DNA of 59,107 nucleotides from an uncultured Defluviitaleaceae bacterium (GTDB lineage: Bacteria; Bacillota; Clostridia; Lachnospirales; WRAX01), in the NCBI GenBank assembly GCA_964449985.1, contig CAYVCG010000001.1:1-59107 (forward strand), read 5' to 3'. Under the pieces are notes generated by a model. That model saw only the letters and a list, made by a program, of their open reading frames with translations. It was not told the DNA's origin and ran no database searches. Position 1 is the first letter of the stretch; every line of letters begins with the position of its first letter. Position numbers and translations under genes: made by a program. Positions 1,781 through 50,662 of this stretch are shown here, in pieces.

Positions 1781-2773
1781 ATGAAAAAAAATCTAGTATC
1801 ATTACCAGTTGTAGCTATGTGTTTGGCGTTAAGTTCTTTAGCTTTCGCATTACCAATTTACGCAAATGTTGGTATGAGTTCTGAAACCGGAAAAGTTATG
1901 AAAGTAGAAACACCAAAGGAGTATATGCAAGACTTTACCATTGAAGGAAAACAGCAAAAAGGTCAATTAGTTGATTCAATCTTTTTAAGTGAAGCTCAAA
2001 TAAGTGATTTAAAAACAGCAGCCGCAAAATCCTTTAAAGAAACACTTGGAATTGAAGTCCCAAGTAATTTAAAATTTGAGTATAGAACAATTCCATCTGA
2101 CGGCATACGAATTGGTTTAAGTTGGCTGGATGAAAAAGAGTCTGCTTCAAAAGACGGCGTGATGAATAAAGACGGGGTGCTATATTTTGCCGATTTTCAT
2201 ATGGCGGATACTTCAAAAGCGGCCGTGCTTAATACAATTGGTGTTAAAAACGGATATGATGCAAAGAAGCTAGATGGTTTAAAAAAACAAGCAATAGATG
2301 CCTTAAAAAAGGAAGTCAAGGCTACAGTGCCGGATAATTATTTTGTAAGTACACGAGTAATAGTTAATTTTTTAGGCAAAAACCAAGACATCAATGTACA
2401 GTTTGAATGGTCAAAAAGCAAAAAGATTGATATGTTAAAGGATACATCCGCATGTTCCTATGTCGCAGGCTTTGACAAAGTTGATTTATCAAAAAATCAA
2501 GGAAGATTAAATGCTATTGAGAATACTGAGGCGACATTTATGGCTAATGCAAACGCTGCAAAGTTTACAAGCATTCAAGAAACAAACATGTTAGAGGCAG
2601 CAAAAACATTTCTTAATCAAAAAGAAATAGGTTTCGGAAAACTGATAAGTTCTATGCAAATGGGAAATGTGTTGTGGTTTACATTTGATTCCGTCACCGA
2701 TAATAAATCTGACCGTGCAGTTATAGATGTGTATATAGGATCAGATTTAAACGTAACTGGTTATATATTCTAA
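1781..2773 (+). CDS. Secreted hypothetical protein (Sec signal peptide)
   Basis: 330-aa ORF with AAGGAG RBS. The N-terminus MKKNLVSLPVVAMCLALSSLAFALPIYA looks like a signal peptide. I recognise no family motif. Confidence 0.75.
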   Translation: MKKNLVSLPVVAMCLALSSLAFALPIYANVGMSSETGKVMKVETPKEYMQDFTIEGKQQKGQLVDSIFLSEAQISDLKTAAAKSFKETLGIEVPSNLKFEYRTIPSDGIRIGLSWLDEKESASKDGVMNKDGVLYFADFHMADTSKAAVLNTIGVKNGYDAKKLDGLKKQAIDALKKEVKATVPDNYFVSTRVIVNFLGKNQDINVQFEWSKSKKIDMLKDTSACSYVAGFDKVDLSKNQGRLNAIENTEATFMANANAAKFTSIQETNMLEAAKTFLNQKEIGFGKLISSMQMGNVLWFTFDSVTDNKSDRAVIDVYIGSDLNVTGYIF

Positions 2774-5708: not shown

Positions 5709-5783
5709 GTAAATGGAGTTGCGTGATACGCAAAAATAGCATGAAACCGTAATAAGTCACGATTTCATGCTAGGCAGAAGAAA

Positions 5784-5857
5784 TCTATAGAATTATACGG
5801 ACGCACAATGCGCGCCCCTACAGAGATTCCGGTTTGTTAGAAATTTTGGTGTTTTTT
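5784..5857 (+). repeat. REP/REPIN-like interspersed element, copy A (internally deleted)
   Basis: It shares ATACGGACGCACAATGCGCGCCCCTACAGAGATTCCGGTTT and GTTAGAAATTTT with the copies at 37423, 45816 and 49496(-). It lacks the 33 nt that carry the second palindrome. Confidence 0.8.
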
Positions 5858-5858
5858 A

Positions 5859-5896
5859 GATAACATGAAGCCCCCTTATCGGGGGCTTTGGTTATC
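5859..5896. terminator. Bidirectional intrinsic terminator between the ATPase and yugP-like genes
   Basis: Hairpin GATAAC..AAGCCCCC-ttatc-GGGGGCTT..GTTATC with T-rich flanks on both strands; lies between convergent genes. Confidence 0.65.
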
Positions 5897-12817: not shown

Positions 12818-15067
12818 TTAAGAAGAAGCAGATTTATATTTTGTTATATCCGTGCAGCAGACTAACAAAGCGTCTCTTTGGCCAGACCAAGTTATTTTTG
12901 ATGCAGCTGCATTTATCCATCCTCCAATCAGAGGCGTCATAAGCTCTAAAGAGGCCATTTTTGTTTTTTCATCAATCAAGTTTGCCGGGCAATTTTCGCA
13001 AGGCGTATCGCTGTCGAACCAAATCCTGTGGCACTTTTGGCCAACTTTATAGCCCATGGATTTTATAAGTTTGTTTAAGTAAAGGGTTTCATGCGATTCT
13101 TTATCAATTACATACACATAACCATTGAGATTTTCAAGCATTTGAATATGTCTTTCATAAAACGCCAATAATTCTTTTGAGATTTGGTCTTTTGTAATAA
13201 ATGTTGAAAGAATTTTTGTCATATAGTTTAATATAGCTATTTCATCAGGCGACCAGTTTCTGTTTGTTTTACATGAATCAAACCCAACAAATCCTTTCAT
13301 CACTCCGTTTTCGTAGAAAATGCAGCGAAGAATAGATTTTGTATTCTGATTCTTTAAAAGCGTATAAAACTCACCCTCAAGATTCGAAATATCTGAACAA
13401 TAATAGATACCGTCCTCATTAAACTGTGAAATTATATCATCAAGCATGAAAACTGGCATATTTTGCATGTTGTTAATTTCTTTGCTTATTCCTTTATTAC
13501 ACCATTCATATGTAACGCTGATAGTATTTTGATTTTCATTAAACTCATACACAGAGCATTTGTCGACATCAAATTCTTTGCCGATAATGCCTAGAATCAT
13601 GCTTATTGTTATTTCTATGTCCTTTGTTTCATAAAGCATTTCAAAAATGGTATGAATAATATCATCAATAAAGTAATTTGTGGTAAAACGCTTTATTAGT
13701 TTAGTTGGCTCTAATTCGATCAACGTTGTTTTGGACAGGTTGTCGTCATAAATTGTATAGCAATCTTTATTTTTTCGTTTTGATTCATAGAGAGCGATAT
13801 CCGCAAGGCGATATAGTTCGTCAAAGGTTTTGGCGTGTTTAGGACATAAAGCAATACCTATACTGCATGAAATTTTATATTCATTGATTTCTCCCGAATA
13901 TGTATGACGGAAAGCATCACATAGCTCTTTTGCCTTTTCAAATATAATATCATCGCTTTTAATATTGTTTATAAAAACAATAAATTCATCGCCGCCAACG
14001 CGCCCAATAATGTCACTATCTCGGAAGAAGAGCTTTAATTTGGCTGAAATATCTATAAGGACAGCATCTCCGAATTGGTGCCCCAACCTGTCATTAAGCC
14101 CCTTAAAATTGTCTATATCAGCCATTATCAGGGCGAATTTGTCACCGGGATTTGCACTTTTTAAGCATCGTTCAATGCGAAGCCTTGTTTCTTCTTTATT
14201 GTAAAGCTTTGTTAGTGGATCGGTTTCAGCCTTTCTTTTTAGGGTATCAATCTGAATTTTTTGCTTAGTTATATCTGTTAATTTTCCTATAACACGCGAT
14301 GGTTTGCCCCATTTATCAAAAAGAATCTTATAATGAACTGTATACCAAATGTAATCATTATCAGGGGCACACAATTTCAAGTGCATACCGTTTCCGGTTT
14401 CTAGCCCACGCACGGTTGCATCCTCTACCGCCATCATAAAATCCGGCATACTTTCTTCAGACACTACTCCCGAGCTAATAAATGCCTTTAAATAATTTTC
14501 TCTTGTTGATGGAATATTGAATCTCTGAGCAAAATGCTGAGAATGCTTGAGCTTTAAGGTTTCTATATCCAAATCGAAGAAACTATCATTCGTAAGATCC
14601 ATAATGAGCCTATTATAGATTTGTTCATTTTCTAGCTTATCCATAAGCGCGACATAATCAGTTATATCGATTAGAGAGCAATAAAGCATAACAGCCCCAT
14701 CTTTATTTGGAATGCCTCGCCCGCTGACATGAACCCATTTATGGCCACATTCTTTGTGAACAACTCTTACTTTGACATTAAATGTGAATTCCTTGGTGGC
14801 CGAAAAGCATTTATTAAATGCTGCTTGCAGCTTATCAAGATCATCATGGTGCATAGTCAGCATGCCTTTATTCTTATAAATATCATATAACTCTTGTTTG
14901 GTATAACCCAAGAGGTCAAAATATCCACGATTGGCTTGTACAATCGTCAAATCGTTGTTCGCTTGCGCTATAACTATAGCACTGGATATATATGAATTTA
15001 CAGAATCTACGCTTTTTAAGTCTTTAATCAAAAAATCATTTTCTAATTTGCAATCAAGTGTACTCAT
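12818..15067 (-). CDS. Multidomain diguanylate cyclase (PAS-PAS-GGDEF-GAF-like-Cys-rich PAS-like)
   Basis: GGDEF active site RVGGDEFIV with I-site RDSD five residues upstream. PAS-like repeats lie N-terminal. A ~300-aa sensory region follows GGDEF and ends with CHRIWFDSDTPCENCP. Start uncertain. Confidence 0.88.
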   Translation of the reverse strand: MSTLDCKLENDFLIKDLKSVDSVNSYISSAIVIAQANNDLTIVQANRGYFDLLGYTKQELYDIYKNKGMLTMHHDDLDKLQAAFNKCFSATKEFTFNVKVRVVHKECGHKWVHVSGRGIPNKDGAVMLYCSLIDITDYVALMDKLENEQIYNRLIMDLTNDSFFDLDIETLKLKHSQHFAQRFNIPSTRENYLKAFISSGVVSEESMPDFMMAVEDATVRGLETGNGMHLKLCAPDNDYIWYTVHYKILFDKWGKPSRVIGKLTDITKQKIQIDTLKRKAETDPLTKLYNKEETRLRIERCLKSANPGDKFALIMADIDNFKGLNDRLGHQFGDAVLIDISAKLKLFFRDSDIIGRVGGDEFIVFINNIKSDDIIFEKAKELCDAFRHTYSGEINEYKISCSIGIALCPKHAKTFDELYRLADIALYESKRKNKDCYTIYDDNLSKTTLIELEPTKLIKRFTTNYFIDDIIHTIFEMLYETKDIEITISMILGIIGKEFDVDKCSVYEFNENQNTISVTYEWCNKGISKEINNMQNMPVFMLDDIISQFNEDGIYYCSDISNLEGEFYTLLKNQNTKSILRCIFYENGVMKGFVGFDSCKTNRNWSPDEIAILNYMTKILSTFITKDQISKELLAFYERHIQMLENLNGYVYVIDKESHETLYLNKLIKSMGYKVGQKCHRIWFDSDTPCENCPANLIDEKTKMASLELMTPLIGGWINAAASKITWSGQRDALLVCCTDITKYKSASS

Positions 15068-17060: not shown

Positions 17061-18173
17061 TTGAATAAAAAAATATGTTACGCCTTTATATTAATTTCGT
17101 TTATCAGCATAGTGACTATGCTTTTTATAGGTAACTCGGCTTCTCATTATTACAAAGCTTATGACGGTAGCACTTCTTTACAAACTCAACAACAGGATCA
17201 GGCAATAAATGAAACAGAAAATCCTAAAGAAAATATTGATCCCTCTGCTGCGGAGATTCATATTAATGATTCAGACGATGTTGACGTTTTAAATATAACT
17301 CAAAACAAAAATGACGATATTAATGATGACAATACTGATGATAGCGATAATACAGAAAATTATGAACGGGCTATTGAAGATAATTCAAAGGAAAGCGCAG
17401 GAACGACTAATAACGCAATAGATGAAGAAGTTACTGTTGATGATCCGTTTCTGGAAGGACCGGAAGATGTTGAATCAGCCGATAATAAGGATATAATTGC
17501 AAATCCTTTGGAGGAGCTTCAAAATCCTGATGTTGTTTTGGATTTATCGGATATTAAGCATATAGCTCTGACATTTGATGATGGCCCGAGAGTTGAAACA
17601 ACGGGCAGGCTTTTGGATATTTTAAAAGATAATAATGCAAAAGCAACATTTTTTGTTATGGGTCAACGCGTTGAAAACAACCCTGATTTGGTTAAAAGGA
17701 TGTATGATGAAGGTCATGCAGTTGGGAATCATACATTTAACCATAAAGACTTGACAAAGCTTAAGGAATCAGACGTTAATTCTCAGATAGAAAAAACCAA
17801 TGTTACTATAAGGAATATCATCGATGCTGATACATCCTTGCTTAGACCGACATATGGGGCATACAATTCTAAAACGATGTCTATGGCAAAAGATAAGAGC
17901 ATGTTTTTAATATTGTGGGATATAGACCCTATGGATTGGAACTCAAAAAATGCCGATAGAATACATGACCATATAGTCTCACGGGCTAAAGATGGTGATA
18001 TAATACTGTTGCATGATATTTATCATACGAGTGTTGATGCTGCTGAGAAGGTTGTTAAAACTTTATCGGAAAAAGGGTTTGTTTTCGTAACAGTGCCTGA
18101 GCTTATAGAGCTTTATCAGCCGATGGAATATGGATGCGCTTACCGTTCGGGGAAGGGAGCCGCTGTTAAATGA
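17061..18173 (+). CDS. Polysaccharide deacetylase (NodB/CE4 domain) with N-terminal TM anchor and acidic linker
   Basis: TFDDGP, HTFNH and LLHD NodB motifs. TTG start after GGGGGAG. There is a ~140-aa D/N/E-rich linker. Confidence 0.88.
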   Translation: MNKKICYAFILISFISIVTMLFIGNSASHYYKAYDGSTSLQTQQQDQAINETENPKENIDPSAAEIHINDSDDVDVLNITQNKNDDINDDNTDDSDNTENYERAIEDNSKESAGTTNNAIDEEVTVDDPFLEGPEDVESADNKDIIANPLEELQNPDVVLDLSDIKHIALTFDDGPRVETTGRLLDILKDNNAKATFFVMGQRVENNPDLVKRMYDEGHAVGNHTFNHKDLTKLKESDVNSQIEKTNVTIRNIIDADTSLLRPTYGAYNSKTMSMAKDKSMFLILWDIDPMDWNSKNADRIHDHIVSRAKDGDIILLHDIYHTSVDAAEKVVKTLSEKGFVFVTVPELIELYQPMEYGCAYRSGKGAAVK

Positions 18174-18619
18174 CGGATTTGGGTGTTAGAATAAATATCT
18201 TAAAAGACGTTTTGGAGCAAAAGAAATCATCTTTAGAGCAAATATATAATATTTGTGAAAACGAAGAAATGCTCTCAAAGGAGCCCAATACTGCGATAAA
18301 GGCAGAAATGCTTAAAGGCATGGCGCTTGAAAAGCAGAACCTTATTGACAATGTGCTTCAATGTGATACTGTGTTTCAAAAATCCTTTGGAGAGATAAAG
18401 GATAATTTTGAGGCTAATGCAGCTTATTATGAAAACGACGTGAGATATTTACAAACCCTAATCAAACATATCGTTGAGCTTGATATAAAAATAAGGAATA
18501 AAGAAAGCGTTAATAAAGAAGTAATAACGCTTGGGCGTTTACCAGCAAGGCCAAAAACCGCCGCCGCAAAAAACTATATATTAAAGCAATACGAAAAAAA
18601 CAATAAAAAAAGACAATAA
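18170..18619 (+). CDS. Hypothetical coiled-coil protein
   Basis: 149-aa ORF whose ATG overlaps the deacetylase stop (ATGA). Helical, K/E/N-rich, with no recognisable motif. Confidence 0.6.
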   Translation: MTDLGVRINILKDVLEQKKSSLEQIYNICENEEMLSKEPNTAIKAEMLKGMALEKQNLIDNVLQCDTVFQKSFGEIKDNFEANAAYYENDVRYLQTLIKHIVELDIKIRNKESVNKEVITLGRLPARPKTAAAKNYILKQYEKNNKKRQ

Positions 18620-37184: not shown

Positions 37185-37422
37185 CAATCCACACGCTTTA
37201 TTTTTACAACATTATCGCTGCGAAAACAATTTTATAAACTATTCTACAAACACTTGCGTATACAATAATAATTATAGTCATATTTGAACCAATTAGAAGT
37301 ATTTAAAAAATATTTGTATTTAAAAAGCTTTACCATGTTATTAAAATTTGATATTATTTGTAAAGTGATATATATAGATTTTGCTAAATCTATTAAATTT
37401 ATTTATTTAAATAAGTTCAGCC

Positions 37423-37547
37423 TGTCGACAATATAATAGAGCAATAATGACGCACAATGCGCGCCCCTACAGAAATTCGGGTTTTATGCCTTTGTATGGG
37501 CGAGCTTTGCCATCCGTTAGAAATTTTAGCATTTGTGGGCATCGTTA
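37423..37547 (+). repeat. REP/REPIN-like interspersed element, copy B
   Basis: TGTCGACAAT...ACGCACAATGCGCGCCCCTACAGAAATTCGGGTTTTATGCC...CCGTTAGAAATTTTAGCATTTGTGGGCATCGTTA. It aligns along its whole length with copies C and D. The second palindrome is degenerate. Confidence 0.85.
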
Positions 37548-37612
37548 ATTTATTTAAAATAAAGTTATTTTCTTACTTTATGTTATCTTAAAATTTTTAG
37601 GAGGAATTATGT

Positions 37613-45359: not shown

Positions 45360-45800
45360 ATGGAAAATATAAATGACAAAAATAAATATAAAGATTTAGT
45401 TATGCAAGCTCTAAAGGCTAAAGAGCGCTCATATTCGCCATATTCCCAATTCAAAGTGGGGGCGGCGCTTATGAGCTCAGCCGGAAAGGTTTACACCGGA
45501 GCGAACATAGAATCAGCCGCATATTCTCCAACAAACTGCGCAGAGCGCACTGCTTTTTTTAAAGCTGTCTTTGATGGTGAGCGAAGCTTTGAAGCTATTG
45601 CCGTTTGTGGAAGCGGAAATGATTATTGCCATCCTTGCGGCGTCTGCCTTCAAGTCATGATGGAGTTTTGCAATCCCAATAGATTCTTTGTTATTGTTAT
45701 AAAGGATGCGGATCACTATAACGTTTACACTCTCAAACAATTGCTGCCGCACGGGTTTGGCCCAGCTGATCTCGGCGCAAATAAAAAGGGCGATATTTAG
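45360..45800 (+). CDS. cdd: Cytidine deaminase
   Basis: 146 aa with CAERTA and PCGVCLQ zinc-binding motifs. Confidence 0.93.
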   Translation: MENINDKNKYKDLVMQALKAKERSYSPYSQFKVGAALMSSAGKVYTGANIESAAYSPTNCAERTAFFKAVFDGERSFEAIAVCGSGNDYCHPCGVCLQVMMEFCNPNRFFVIVIKDADHYNVYTLKQLLPHGFGPADLGANKKGDI

Positions 45801-45811
45801 CCATCGCCCTT
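45786..45811 (+). repeat. Left copy of duplicated cdd terminator hairpin (no T-tract)
   Basis: AAGGGCGAtatttagccaTCGCCCTT contains the cdd stop codon. 24/26 identical to 45941-45966. Confidence 0.85.
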
Positions 45812-45815
45812 ATGC

Positions 45816-45940
45816 TGTCGACAATTCATCGAACAATACGGACGCGCAATGCGCGCCCCTACAGAAATTCCGGTTTTATGCCGTTTGCAAGGGCACCCAT
45901 TGGCCGTCCTTTAGAAATTTAGTATTTGTCGACATCGTGA
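45816..45940 (+). repeat. REP/REPIN-like interspersed element, copy C
   Basis: TGTCGACAATTCATCGAACAATACGGACGCGCAATGCGCGCCCCTACAGAAATTCCGGTTTTATGCC...GGCCGTCCTTTAGAAATTTAGTATTTGTCGACATCGTGA, with terminal TGTCGACAA / TTGTCGACA inverted repeats. Confidence 0.88.
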
Positions 45941-45971
45941 AAGGGCGACATTTAACCATCGCCCTTTTTCT
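45941..45971 (+). terminator. Right copy of the cdd terminator hairpin, with T-tract (functional terminator)
   Basis: AAGGGCGAcatttaaccaTCGCCCTTTTTC: 8-bp GC-rich stem plus T5. Confidence 0.75.
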
Positions 45972-49423: not shown

Positions 49424-49454
49424 AGTATACCACCTTAAAGTTACTTTAAGTCAA
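49424..49454 (-). promoter_or_regulatory. MerR-type promoter with 19-bp spacer and operator dyad
   Basis: Minus strand: TTGACT, 19 nt, TATACT. The spacer contains the perfect dyad CTTAAAGT-A-ACTTTAAG. The -10 ends 6 nt before the merR ATG. Confidence 0.55.
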
Positions 49455-49462
49455 CAGTTTTT

Positions 49463-49495
49463 CAATAAAAATAGGGTGGAATTTTTATCCACCCT
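49463..49495 (-). terminator. Intrinsic terminator (distal copy of duplicated hairpin) ending the SPFH/Tim44-like operon
   Basis: Minus strand: AGGGTGGA-uaaaaau-UCCACCCU followed by AUUUUUAUU. Confidence 0.75.
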
Positions 49496-49620
49496 CACGA
49501 TATTGACAAATACTAAAATTTCTAACGGACGGCCAATGGCCGCCCCTACAAATGGCGTAAAACCAGAATTTCTGTAGGGGCGCGCATTGCGCGCCCGTAT
49601 TGTTCGATAAATTGTCCACA
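49496..49620 (-). repeat. REP/REPIN-like interspersed element, copy D (best preserved)
   Basis: The reverse complement aligns end to end with copy C. It has two perfect or near-perfect 8-bp palindromes: GGGCGCGC-ATT-GCGCGCCC (49578-49596) and GGACGGCC-AAT-GGCCGCCC (49527-49545). Their GTAG/CTAC heads face each other across 24 nt. Confidence 0.88.
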
Positions 49621-49625
49621 GCCTA

Positions 49626-49648
49626 AGGTTGGAATTTTTATCCACCCT
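49626..49648 (-). repeat. Proximal, degenerate copy of the duplicated terminator hairpin
   Basis: AGGTTGGAATTTTTATCCACCCT is 22/23 identical to 49473-49495. The single change breaks the stem, and no T-tract follows on the minus strand. Confidence 0.8.
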
Positions 49649-49667
49649 ATTCCACAATATTCAAATC

Positions 49668-50627
49668 CTAATACCCTCTAACACTGTTTATCTCACACAG
49701 CACCCAGTCAAACTTACCTGTTGTTATAACGCTGTCACAATACTGGCATTGTCCGGATGATGTTATATCAGTCGGCGCGCCACAATTAGGACAGTTAGTC
49801 GTGCTTAGGTTGCTTGTAGACGGATTCGTTTTTGTATCCGCGCTGCGTATAAATTTCAGCAAGTATGCCATACGATATACTTTATTAGGATCTCCGCGCA
49901 ATACCTTGCCGGTTTCATCGTCGATAAAGTAGTCATTCATCTTCGCATTTAAATAAACGGTCAGATAAGCATAATCTTCATCCTTTGAATATGCTGTCAA
50001 ATACGCATCATTTACGCAAATATTTTCCACGATATTAGTCCTTTTGTTATCAATATGCTCTTGAAGCTGCAACTGATGCGTCTTGAAAAGCGTATCGTTT
50101 TCGAAAGGCCTTGCCAATTTCCAATCACGTTTGGTCCATGCTGTTTGAAGCTGAACAAACACTTCTTTTGACCATGAAATAAACTTATCTGATGAGAATA
50201 ACTGGTCTTCCTCTTTTATTTGCGCTGATATCGCCTCAGTGTTATTCGGATGGTTTTGAGGTATTTGCGAACTGTCTAACGGGCGCAGGTTTTTATCCGA
50301 AGAACTGCTATTGCGGCTTACACTCTTGCCAATAAACACTAGAACTATAACAACAACAATTAATCCAACAAATCCCAACGGCCCATTCGTAAAGAACAGC
50401 AAAATAATCCATATCAAAAAGTCACTAGAATCGCCGTTACTACTGCCATAACCTCCGTCGTATCCTCCCCCGTCAAAGCTTCCTCCATCTGAATCATAAC
50501 TATTAAAATTCCCAACATCTGCCATGGCATAACGTGGGCTAAGATTAATCGTGATGTTTACAGTCCCAACTGTTATACACACCATAACAACAATATATAG
50601 CAGCCGCCTAATCATGTTATTCTTCAT
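49668..50627 (-). CDS. Tim44-like domain membrane protein with C-terminal zinc ribbon
   Basis: N-terminal TM, Gly/Ser/Asp-rich segment, second TM, Tim44-like alpha/beta region, then CPNCGA...CQYC. ATG after GGGAGAG. Confidence 0.75.
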   Translation of the reverse strand: MKNNMIRRLLYIVVMVCITVGTVNITINLSPRYAMADVGNFNSYDSDGGSFDGGGYDGGYGSSNGDSSDFLIWIILLFFTNGPLGFVGLIVVVIVLVFIGKSVSRNSSSSDKNLRPLDSSQIPQNHPNNTEAISAQIKEEDQLFSSDKFISWSKEVFVQLQTAWTKRDWKLARPFENDTLFKTHQLQLQEHIDNKRTNIVENICVNDAYLTAYSKDEDYAYLTVYLNAKMNDYFIDDETGKVLRGDPNKVYRMAYLLKFIRSADTKTNPSTSNLSTTNCPNCGAPTDITSSGQCQYCDSVITTGKFDWVLCEINSVRGY

Positions 50628-50662
50628 AACATACTCTCCCAATCATTTTTATTAGCACAAGG

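Follow-up and report, generated by a model that had tools for sequence, protein, structure and literature searches.

The insertion sequence (IS) IS1630 of Mycoplasma fermentans, a member of the IS30 family, duplicates inverted repeats of 19-26 bp, or of 16-26 bp in strain M64 (PMC2853133, PMC3317919). The defining feature of repetitive extragenic palindromic (REP) sequences, or REPs, is a GTAG tetranucleotide located 5' of an imperfect GC-rich palindrome (PMC3733652). Bacterial miniature inverted-repeat transposable elements, in short MITEs, have a small size, are non-coding and multi-copy, carry inverted repeats near their ends and flanking direct repeats, form stable hairpins and often lie within neighbouring transcripts (PMC10969869). 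In the present study we analyzed a stretch of 59,107 nt from an uncultured Defluviitaleaceae bacterium (contig CAYVCG010000001.1, in the following "the window", to which all coordinates refer) with four copies of a short element, all of them intergenic, 96-130 nt in size and located at ~5.8, 37.4, 45.8 and 49.5 kb (copies A to D). The last of these, copy D, contains two REPs and lies between two copies of one complete hairpin downstream of a Tim44-like gene. Duplication of a whole hairpin is a rare insertion footprint, so far known mainly from IS1630.

The site of copy D (49464-49670) is described on the minus strand and reads, from the upstream gene onwards and with the parts of the element listed after the element as a whole:

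49668-50642, minus strand: Tim44-like gene, stop codon at 49668-49670, separated by a spacer of 19 nt from the proximal hairpin
49626-49648, minus strand: proximal (upstream) copy of the 23-nt target hairpin, AGGGTGGATAAAAATTCCAACCT, with one G.A mismatch in the stem, followed by TAGGC and without a T-tract
49496-49625, minus strand: element copy D, 130 nt, the best preserved copy, consisting of left arm, REP1, spacer, REP2 and right arm
49597-49625, minus strand: left arm TAGGCTGTGGACAATTTATCGAACAATAC, with the subterminal repeat TGTGGACAA (49620-49612) that has one mismatch to TGTCGACAA
49573-49596, plus strand: REP1, TGTAG-GGGCGCGC-ATT-GCGCGCCC, its GTAG head pointing into the element
49551-49572, minus strand: spacer GAAATTCTGGTTTTACGCCATT, 22 nt, between the facing GTAG heads
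49527-49550, minus strand: REP2, TGTAG-GGGCGGCC-ATT-GGCCGTCC, with a G.T wobble at stem position 3 on the GTAG strand
49496-49526, minus strand: right arm GTTAGAAATTTTAGTATTTGTCAATATCGTG, whose subterminal repeat TTGTCAATA (49509-49501) is degenerate relative to TTGTCGACA
49473-49495, minus strand: distal copy of the target hairpin, AGGGTGGATAAAAATTCCACCCT, whose stem of 8 bp is perfect
49464-49472, minus strand: T-tract ATTTTTATT of the original terminator, kept by the distal hairpin copy only

Both 23-nt hairpin copies touch the junctions of the element exactly. They are identical in 22 of 23 positions, and the score of this repeat was matched in 0 of 1000 dinucleotide shuffles of the flanks. 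The proximal copy has no T-tract because the element begins directly after the hairpin, and the distal copy with its T-tract is the sole terminator-like site for the Tim44-like gene on the minus strand. A preliminary description of the locus had reported the same identity, a degenerate proximal hairpin without and a perfect distal hairpin with a T-tract, and the minus-strand sequence agrees with this. Its length of 125 nt for the element has to be replaced by the 130 nt measured between the repeats. Both palindromes had been given an ATT loop, which is correct for REP2, while the loop of the first palindrome is AAT if the minus strand is read (GGGCGCGC-AAT-GCGCGCCC-CTACA, 49596-49573) and ATT on the plus strand only. 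The GTAG heads do lie on their own strands and face each other, as had been said, the REPs at 49596-49573 and 49550-49527 being separated by 22 nt. In an nhmmer search copy D was matched over the full length with 136.8 bits, and it is 96% identical to the consensus of the four copies.

The other three copies and the hairpins at their ends are:

5739-5770: hairpin GCATGAAACCGTAATAAGTCACGATTTCATGC, 32 nt, at the left end of copy A
5771-5866 (right end approximate), plus strand: copy A, the most decayed copy, 83% identical to the consensus, without REP2 owing to an internal deletion of 33 nt, its right end degenerate
37396-37417: AT-only palindrome AATTTATTTATTTAAATAAGTT, 22 nt, left of copy B, with a diverged right copy at 37546-37566
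37417-37545 (ends +/-2 nt), plus strand: copy B, in a divergent promoter region, 87% identical to the consensus
45785-45810, plus strand: left hairpin of copy C, AAAGGGCGATATTTAGCCATCGCCCT, 26 nt, followed by a T-tract on the minus strand and terminator-like for the convergent dpaB unit
45811-45939, plus strand: copy C, 129 nt, 93% identical to the consensus, with both subterminal TGTCGACA(A) repeats intact and a degenerate REP2
45940-45965, plus strand: right hairpin of copy C, AAAGGGCGACATTTAACCATCGCCCT, followed by TTTTTCTATTT
49573-49596, 45840-45863, 37448-37471 and 5799-5822: REP1 in the four copies

Copy C repeats the architecture of copy D over positions 45785-45965 with a different hairpin, as the preliminary description had remarked. 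Its flank repeats (24 of 26 positions identical) touch both junctions, and again 0 of 1000 shuffles reach their score. In copies C and D the repeat unit equals the stem-loop to within 1 nt, and therefore the length of the repeat follows the target (26 vs 23 nt). The flank repeat of copy B is less well preserved (19 of 23, with two indels); it touches the junctions as well and has p ~0.1 if regarded alone in its AT-rich sequence. We consider this AT-rich palindromic repeat a plausible third duplication. For copy A the shuffle test of the flanks gave no significant right-hand duplicate of its 32-nt hairpin. If a junction hairpin is required to have a stem of at least 8 bp with at most one mismatch, a hairpin ends exactly at the left junction in four of four copies compared to 3.6% of the intergenic positions of the window, which corresponds to a probability of about 2e-6.

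The flank repeats decay in parallel with the elements that they enclose: 22/23 in copy D (96% identity of the element to the consensus), 24/26 in copy C (93%), 19/23 with indels in copy B (87%) and none in copy A (83%). This is as expected for target-site duplications made at insertion. The flanking hairpins are wholly different in sequence from locus to locus, and this excludes a shared recombination core as well as local tandem duplication of a pre-existing module. The earlier suggestion of a mechanism rather than coincidence is thus strengthened by the junction hairpins, by two significant duplications with a plausible third and by the parallel decay.

In Logan assemblies made independently from four samples the junctions recur, and the assemblies then break off within the element. 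L072 and L073 span the left junction of copy D, with the proximal hairpin present in L072, and L071 spans its right junction, with the right arm at the assembly start. L074 and L075 span the left junction of copy C, the left hairpin copy being contained in L074. The junctions and the duplication are therefore no assembly artefact, and from the observation that short-read assemblies stop inside the element it follows that the element is multi-copy in that organism.

Alignment of the four copies resolves the element into a left arm TAGGCTGTCGACAATTTATCGAACAATAC, REP1, the spacer, REP2 and a right arm GTTAGAAATTTTAGTATTTGTCGACATCGTG. The arms, which go beyond the preliminary description, comprise ~30 nt each and contain the inverted, palindromic TGTCGACA(A) motif in subterminal position: the 9-mer TGTCGACAA lies ~5 nt inside each tip. 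No compensatory changes are found in the arms among the four copies, and no internal copy of any flanking hairpin exists in the element. A further match of TGTCGACAA at 13560 falls within coding sequence and is regarded as chance. Rfam returned nothing for the element at gathering thresholds, the sole weak match having E = 0.39.

The core of the element belongs to a family that is far more widespread than the arms. Both REPs of the window match GTAGGGGCGNNCNNNGNNCGNCC with 0 mismatches, and the 19-mer CAATGCGCGCCCCTACAGA, which comprises the head and the 5' arm of REP1, is invariant in the four copies although these differ overall by 11-23%; it is the longest invariant run of the element (permutation p = 0.02). 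A scan with this 19-mer against one genome per species yielded 70 loci in ~40 Clostridia genomes, mostly metagenome-assembled genomes (MAGs) of Oscillospiraceae, and the REP superfamily also occurs in the cultured species Acetanaerobacterium elongatum and Agathobaculum butyriciproducens. It is found nearly unchanged in gut, termite and other sources (L001-L070, e.g. L012:4950-5080, L016:1025-1407, L031:2113-2184, L037:1829, L052:4488). Outside the window the REPs stand single, as head-to-head pairs or in tandem arrays. The REP surveys compared here list no REPs of Clostridia.

The REPs of the family have the form GTAG-GGGCG-NNN-loop-NNN-CG(C/T)CC, and the consensus GTAGGGGCGNNCNNNGNNCGNCC is represented by 177 instances with 56 distinct variants from ~40 genomes. 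Stem positions pair in 98.2% of the cells across these variants, compared to 35-56% in slid controls, and double changes occur in 72 cells compared to 22.2 +/- 4.6 in shuffles (0/500). The paired changes in both arms that the preliminary description had seen between the two palindromes of copy D are hence compensatory at the level of the family. The three apical pairs are modular and change together (CGC/GCG, GCC/GGC, AAC/GTT, GGG/CCC, GAC/GTC, GAT/ATC and others).

A further aspect is the strand on which the stems pair. Pairing amounts to 98.2% on the GTAG strand and to 91.3% on the complement, because many of the pairs are G.T. In accordance with this REP1 varies between the four copies by C-to-T changes only, all of them in the 3' arm if the GTAG strand is read. 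G.T pairs are thereby kept on that strand, and the transcribed strand of three copies out of four acquires A.C mismatches. This strand-asymmetric pairing points to single-stranded DNA as the possible ligand, as for classical REPs, and the mismatches of REP1 in the sense transcript argue against a simple RNA role for both REPs. As RNA, the region of copy D can form one long hairpin in which even both target copies are paired (z = -8). The minimum-free-energy fold pairs REP1 with REP2 at -84.4 kcal/mol (z = -7.95), a second RNA fold computation gave z = -7.01, and the DNA centroid structure pairs the two REPs likewise, so that the larger hairpin of the REPIN type (an inverted REP pair) proposed in the preliminary description was recovered in both chemistries.

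If hairpin duplication were a general property of REP pairs it should be visible in other genomes. We found 116 REP clusters in the window and the 70 loci of other genomes, of which 111 had enough flank to be tested. Apart from array periodicity and locus L022, significant abutting flank repeats occur at the window copies C and D only, and duplication as a general property of REP pairs was rejected, the other high scores being due to tandem-array periodicity. L022 has the sole other long flank repeat, perfect over at least 32 nt (~50 nt imperfect), and there the usual left arm is absent. A hidden Markov model of the four copies matches other genomes only at model positions ~27-103, i.e. the REP pair, which makes the arms private to this genome; nhmmer over the window, the loci of other genomes and the assemblies gave no extra copies or fragments of the element. 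The duplications occur only together with the arms, and the footprint and with it the mobility therefore belong to the arm-bearing composite and not to the REPs as such. The superfamily found in many Clostridia genomes without these arms or hairpin duplications is a second extension of the preliminary description.

Other arrangements of the same REPs were also observed. In the termite-gut MAG WRMK01 (L016:1025-1407, L031:2113-2184, L043:5808-5941, L050:1745) they form tandem arrays with periods of ~53-115 nt that resemble bacterial interspersed mosaic elements (BIMEs), and they alternate with other REP types. The MAG OH_SBB_121 (L013, L022, L059, L062, L005) contains a ~190-nt composite of the same two REP types with heads outward and long arms GCTGTAAAAAAATTATGGCATAGAAAATC...; apart from the copy in L022, its copies have at most 6-10 nt of inconsistent flank similarity. 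A second family with terminal inverted repeats, GGGGCTGTCTCA...TGAGACAGCCCC (L030 ~1950-2200, L013), encloses a single REP and a different palindrome, and in L013 the ~190-nt composite is nested in it.

We consider it rather likely that the sequence described here is a non-autonomous, non-coding, MITE-like element of ~130 nt which is mobilized in trans by a transposase with its cuts at the two bases of a hairpin stem. The element would insert at DNA palindromes, mostly at the hairpins of intrinsic terminators, with the two strand transfers placed at the two bases of the stem. A plausible site for this could be the four-way junction of an extruded cruciform, where the stem bases would be adjacent. 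Repair of the gaps would then copy the complete stem-loop (23, 26 and ~22 bp at three loci), so that the element comes to lie between the two copies. By analogy, the mobilizing enzyme is most likely IS1630-like in its behaviour and may be encoded elsewhere in the genome.

Such an insertion could also change the 3' end of the transcript. As the upstream hairpin copy would be cut off from its T-tract, transcripts may read through it, gain the two REP stem-loops as a 3' untranslated region (3'UTR) and stop at the downstream copy with the T-tract; for the Tim44-like gene the predicted end is 49464-49472. At copy C the original target may have been a bidirectional terminator between convergent genes. 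Here the left hairpin keeps the A-tract (a T-tract on the minus strand) and the right hairpin keeps the T-tract of the plus strand, and therefore both convergent units should terminate only past the element. The TAG stop of the cytidine deaminase gene (45798-45800) lies inside the loop of the left hairpin, and the last codons of the gene form the 5' arm of its own terminator; in the right hairpin TAA (45953-45955) is found at the place of this TAG. With the stop codon in the loop of the left copy, duplicating the target instead of disrupting it would have preserved the end of the gene.

Several observations weigh against a MITE-like element mobilized in trans. Pfam searches found no transposase, recombinase or Y1 domain in the 49 open reading frames (ORFs) of the window, and no pair of TGTCGACA brackets an ORF in the window, the loci or the assemblies examined. 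Neither a parent IS nor a further composite was detected in plasmids and phages (blastn), viral contigs or JGI metagenomes: the scans of viral contigs gave 0 matches, as did an element-specific 22-mer in the JGI metagenomes. There, a 21-mer from the right arm had 9 matches, all in cyanobacterial kinase coding sequence and attributed to chance. The inverted repeat is a weak terminal inverted repeat (TIR) because it is short (9 bp), subterminal and itself palindromic, and only in copy C is it intact at both ends. Just two of the four duplications (C and D) are significant by themselves. An empty site was not recovered, since the nearest Tim44-like homologues share at most 57% protein identity, and every contig with the exact flanking genes is occupied and breaks inside the element. 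REP1 is strongly conserved, a hint that the core of REPs may be more than passive cargo. All four copies are co-oriented with local transcription, which is not obviously expected of a cut-and-paste element with a DDE transposase; n = 4 is too few for significance and too small to weigh. A lead towards the IS1182 family with its variable direct repeats was not borne out by the literature compared here.

One alternative takes the composite as a true REPIN that is mobilized by a REP-associated tyrosine transposase (RAYT, HUH/Y1) on single-stranded DNA, with the arms as a lineage-specific extension. Insertion would then occur at a hairpin extruded at the replication fork and the duplication would be a by-product of fork or repair resolution. 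The core, a textbook GTAG REP doublet from a superfamily in ~40 genomes with strong stem covariation, fits this proposal, as do the better pairing of the GTAG strand with the C-to-T changes of REP1 that keep G.T pairs, the REP1 head that stayed invariant in otherwise diverged copies, and the common orientation of all four copies with local transcription: in Firmicutes, transcription and replication usually run in the same direction, and a strand bias of this kind is shown by HUH elements. Group 1 RAYTs are moreover reported in Clostridia (PMC5581495). What makes a RAYT-driven REPIN unlikely in our view is the 23- and 26-nt duplications at copies D and C, together with the lack of hairpin duplications at the REP singles, pairs and arrays of other genomes. 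Y1 transposition (IS200/IS605) is not known to leave a target duplication, nor is REP/RAYT as far as described. No Y1-like ORF was found in the window (Pfam) or in the 70 REP-bearing loci, where tblastn with Y1 queries was a weak search. The three best tblastn matches lie within or beside housekeeping genes and were put down to chance, and the recurrent ORF families beside REPs encode ABC-transporter permeases and no transposases. That the hairpin duplications are the insertion footprint of the REPIN itself, made at single-stranded hairpins via a Y1/RAYT-type enzyme or some other partner, seems similarly doubtful.

It could also be argued that the element is not mobile at all and represents a structured 3'UTR or terminator module selected by the host, in which the REPs protect the mRNA from 3' exonucleases and the doubled hairpins are tandem duplications that improve termination. 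In E. coli, REPs are known to stabilize the mRNA upstream of them. The element has a very stable fold as RNA (z = -7 to -8), three copies out of four sit just past stop codons and are co-oriented with the upstream gene, and the distal hairpin is scored as a terminator together with its T-tract. We nevertheless regard this as very improbable: the same 130-nt sequence between different hairpins at unrelated loci needs insertion and cannot come from local duplication, the site of copy B is a divergent promoter region and not a 3'UTR, REP1 has A.C mismatches in the transcript of three copies and keeps its pairing on the antisense strand only, and the arms show no compensatory changes and match no Rfam family. 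Integration by a site-specific recombinase (Xer/dif-like or integron/attC-like), with the flank repeats as attL/attR cores, would account for the repeat lengths found here (22-27 bp), as elements integrated in this manner have direct repeats of ~15-30 bp that are often partly palindromic and often have one degenerate copy. The flank repeats differ completely per locus, which excludes a shared core, the hairpins are not represented inside the element and the window has no recombinase gene, so that we give such an integration hardly any credence. The least credible explanation is chance resemblance or an assembly artefact. While one must keep in mind that the contig is apparently metagenome-derived, that repeats are error-prone in assembly and that short-read contigs end within the element, the independent assemblies from four samples contain the two junctions of copy D and the left one of copy C, each with its hairpin copy, and neither the shuffles (0/1000) nor the frequency of junction hairpins (~2e-6) favors coincidence.

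The neighbours of the element are housekeeping genes: a P-type ATPase and a Zn peptidase at copy A, pyruvate:ferredoxin oxidoreductase and an M50-like/ScpA operon at copy B, cytidine deaminase and dipicolinate synthase B at copy C, and Tim44-like and MerR at copy D. The deletion of 33 nt in copy A takes away exactly REP2 and a portion of the spacer and lies between two GTT motifs (5827-5835); it could be a microhomology deletion or the precise removal of one REP unit. Downstream of copy D one more feature is found:

49424-49454, minus strand: promoter of the MerR-family gene, TTGACT-19 nt-TATACT, its over-long spacer containing the palindrome TTAAAGTAACTTTAA

This is the classical layout of a MerR-type operator/promoter, and it starts just 18 nt past the distal hairpin. 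The only ORF across the element has 68 codons (49451-49657, minus strand) and passes through it completely in a single frame. A search of the protein database gave no relatives, including among spurious ORFs on other copies, and the ORF is most likely spurious itself. Exact-protein look-ups for further occurrences, including the 324-aa reading of the Tim44-like ORF, returned nothing; the 319-aa form (P0001) is on record. Two ORFs of the window, 1781-2773 (plus strand, 330 aa), which comes after a histidine kinase gene, and 18170-18619 (plus strand, 149 aa), remained without a match in Pfam and NCBIfam at the thresholds applied.

A second, unrelated-looking case of whole-hairpin duplication, in miniature and in Clostridia, suggests that cleavage at both stem bases of an extruded hairpin is a solution that recurs and no peculiarity of Mycoplasma. 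The element also joins two kinds of repeats that are normally treated apart, the REP/REPIN palindromes and the MITEs with TIRs and target-site duplications, and might provide a tractable case for asking who mobilizes REP pairs. Each insertion would rewire a terminator by separating the proximal hairpin from its T-tract and by adding two strong stem-loops to the 3'UTR, with testable effects on transcript ends and mRNA stability. Apart from the element, the analysis shows that GTAG REPs whose stem tip is modular and covaries form a widespread superfamily in Oscillospiraceae and other Clostridia. The case would be considerably more interesting if the mobilizing enzyme were REP-associated. Should the duplications be the footprint of the REPIN itself, they would for the first time provide direct evidence, at the sequence level, on the mode and the place of REPIN insertion and would explain the accumulation of REPs beside terminators in many bacteria.

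Among the systems described so far, the element resembles IS1630 in its footprint: a whole inverted repeat of variable length and sequence is duplicated (23, 26 and ~22 bp here), and the targets are hairpins near genes. Calcutt et al. are said to have recognized in 1999 that the target repeats of IS1630 are rho-independent terminators of neighbouring genes; here, the target of copy D with its T-tract and the left hairpin of copy C (minus strand) score as terminators. IS1630 itself is an autonomous IS of 1.4 kb with 27-bp terminal inverted repeats, its own DDE transposase and a Mollicute host, whereas the present element has 130 nt, is non-coding, carries a 9-bp subterminal repeat around a REP doublet core and resides in Clostridia.

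With REPs and REPINs the element shares GTAG plus palindrome, an inverted pair that can be folded to one long hairpin, the extragenic position mostly downstream of genes, the covarying stem and the strand-asymmetric pairing. Classical REPs and REPINs have neither terminal inverted repeats of their own nor target duplications, and in the latter respect the present element departs from them. BIMEs of enterobacteria and SPRITE of Streptococcus pneumoniae are palindromic repeats as well, composite or terminator-like, and stand where transcription units have their 3' ends, but BIMEs are arrays of alternating REPs without arms or duplications, and SPRITE brings its own terminator-like hairpin where the present element borrows and duplicates that of the host.

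MITEs of the Correia, ERIC, RUP and BOX type are likewise short, non-coding, multi-copy, intergenic and flanked by direct repeats. Target duplications of MITEs are short and of fixed length (2-10 bp), in contrast to the duplication of a complete 22-27 bp hairpin whose length follows the target. A MITE with such a whole-hairpin, target-length duplication is not mentioned in the 2024 MITE review (PMC10969869), and nothing equivalent is found in that review or in the REP surveys compared here. The element thus has an IS1630-like footprint, a REPIN-like core and the size, copy number and flanking repeats of a MITE.

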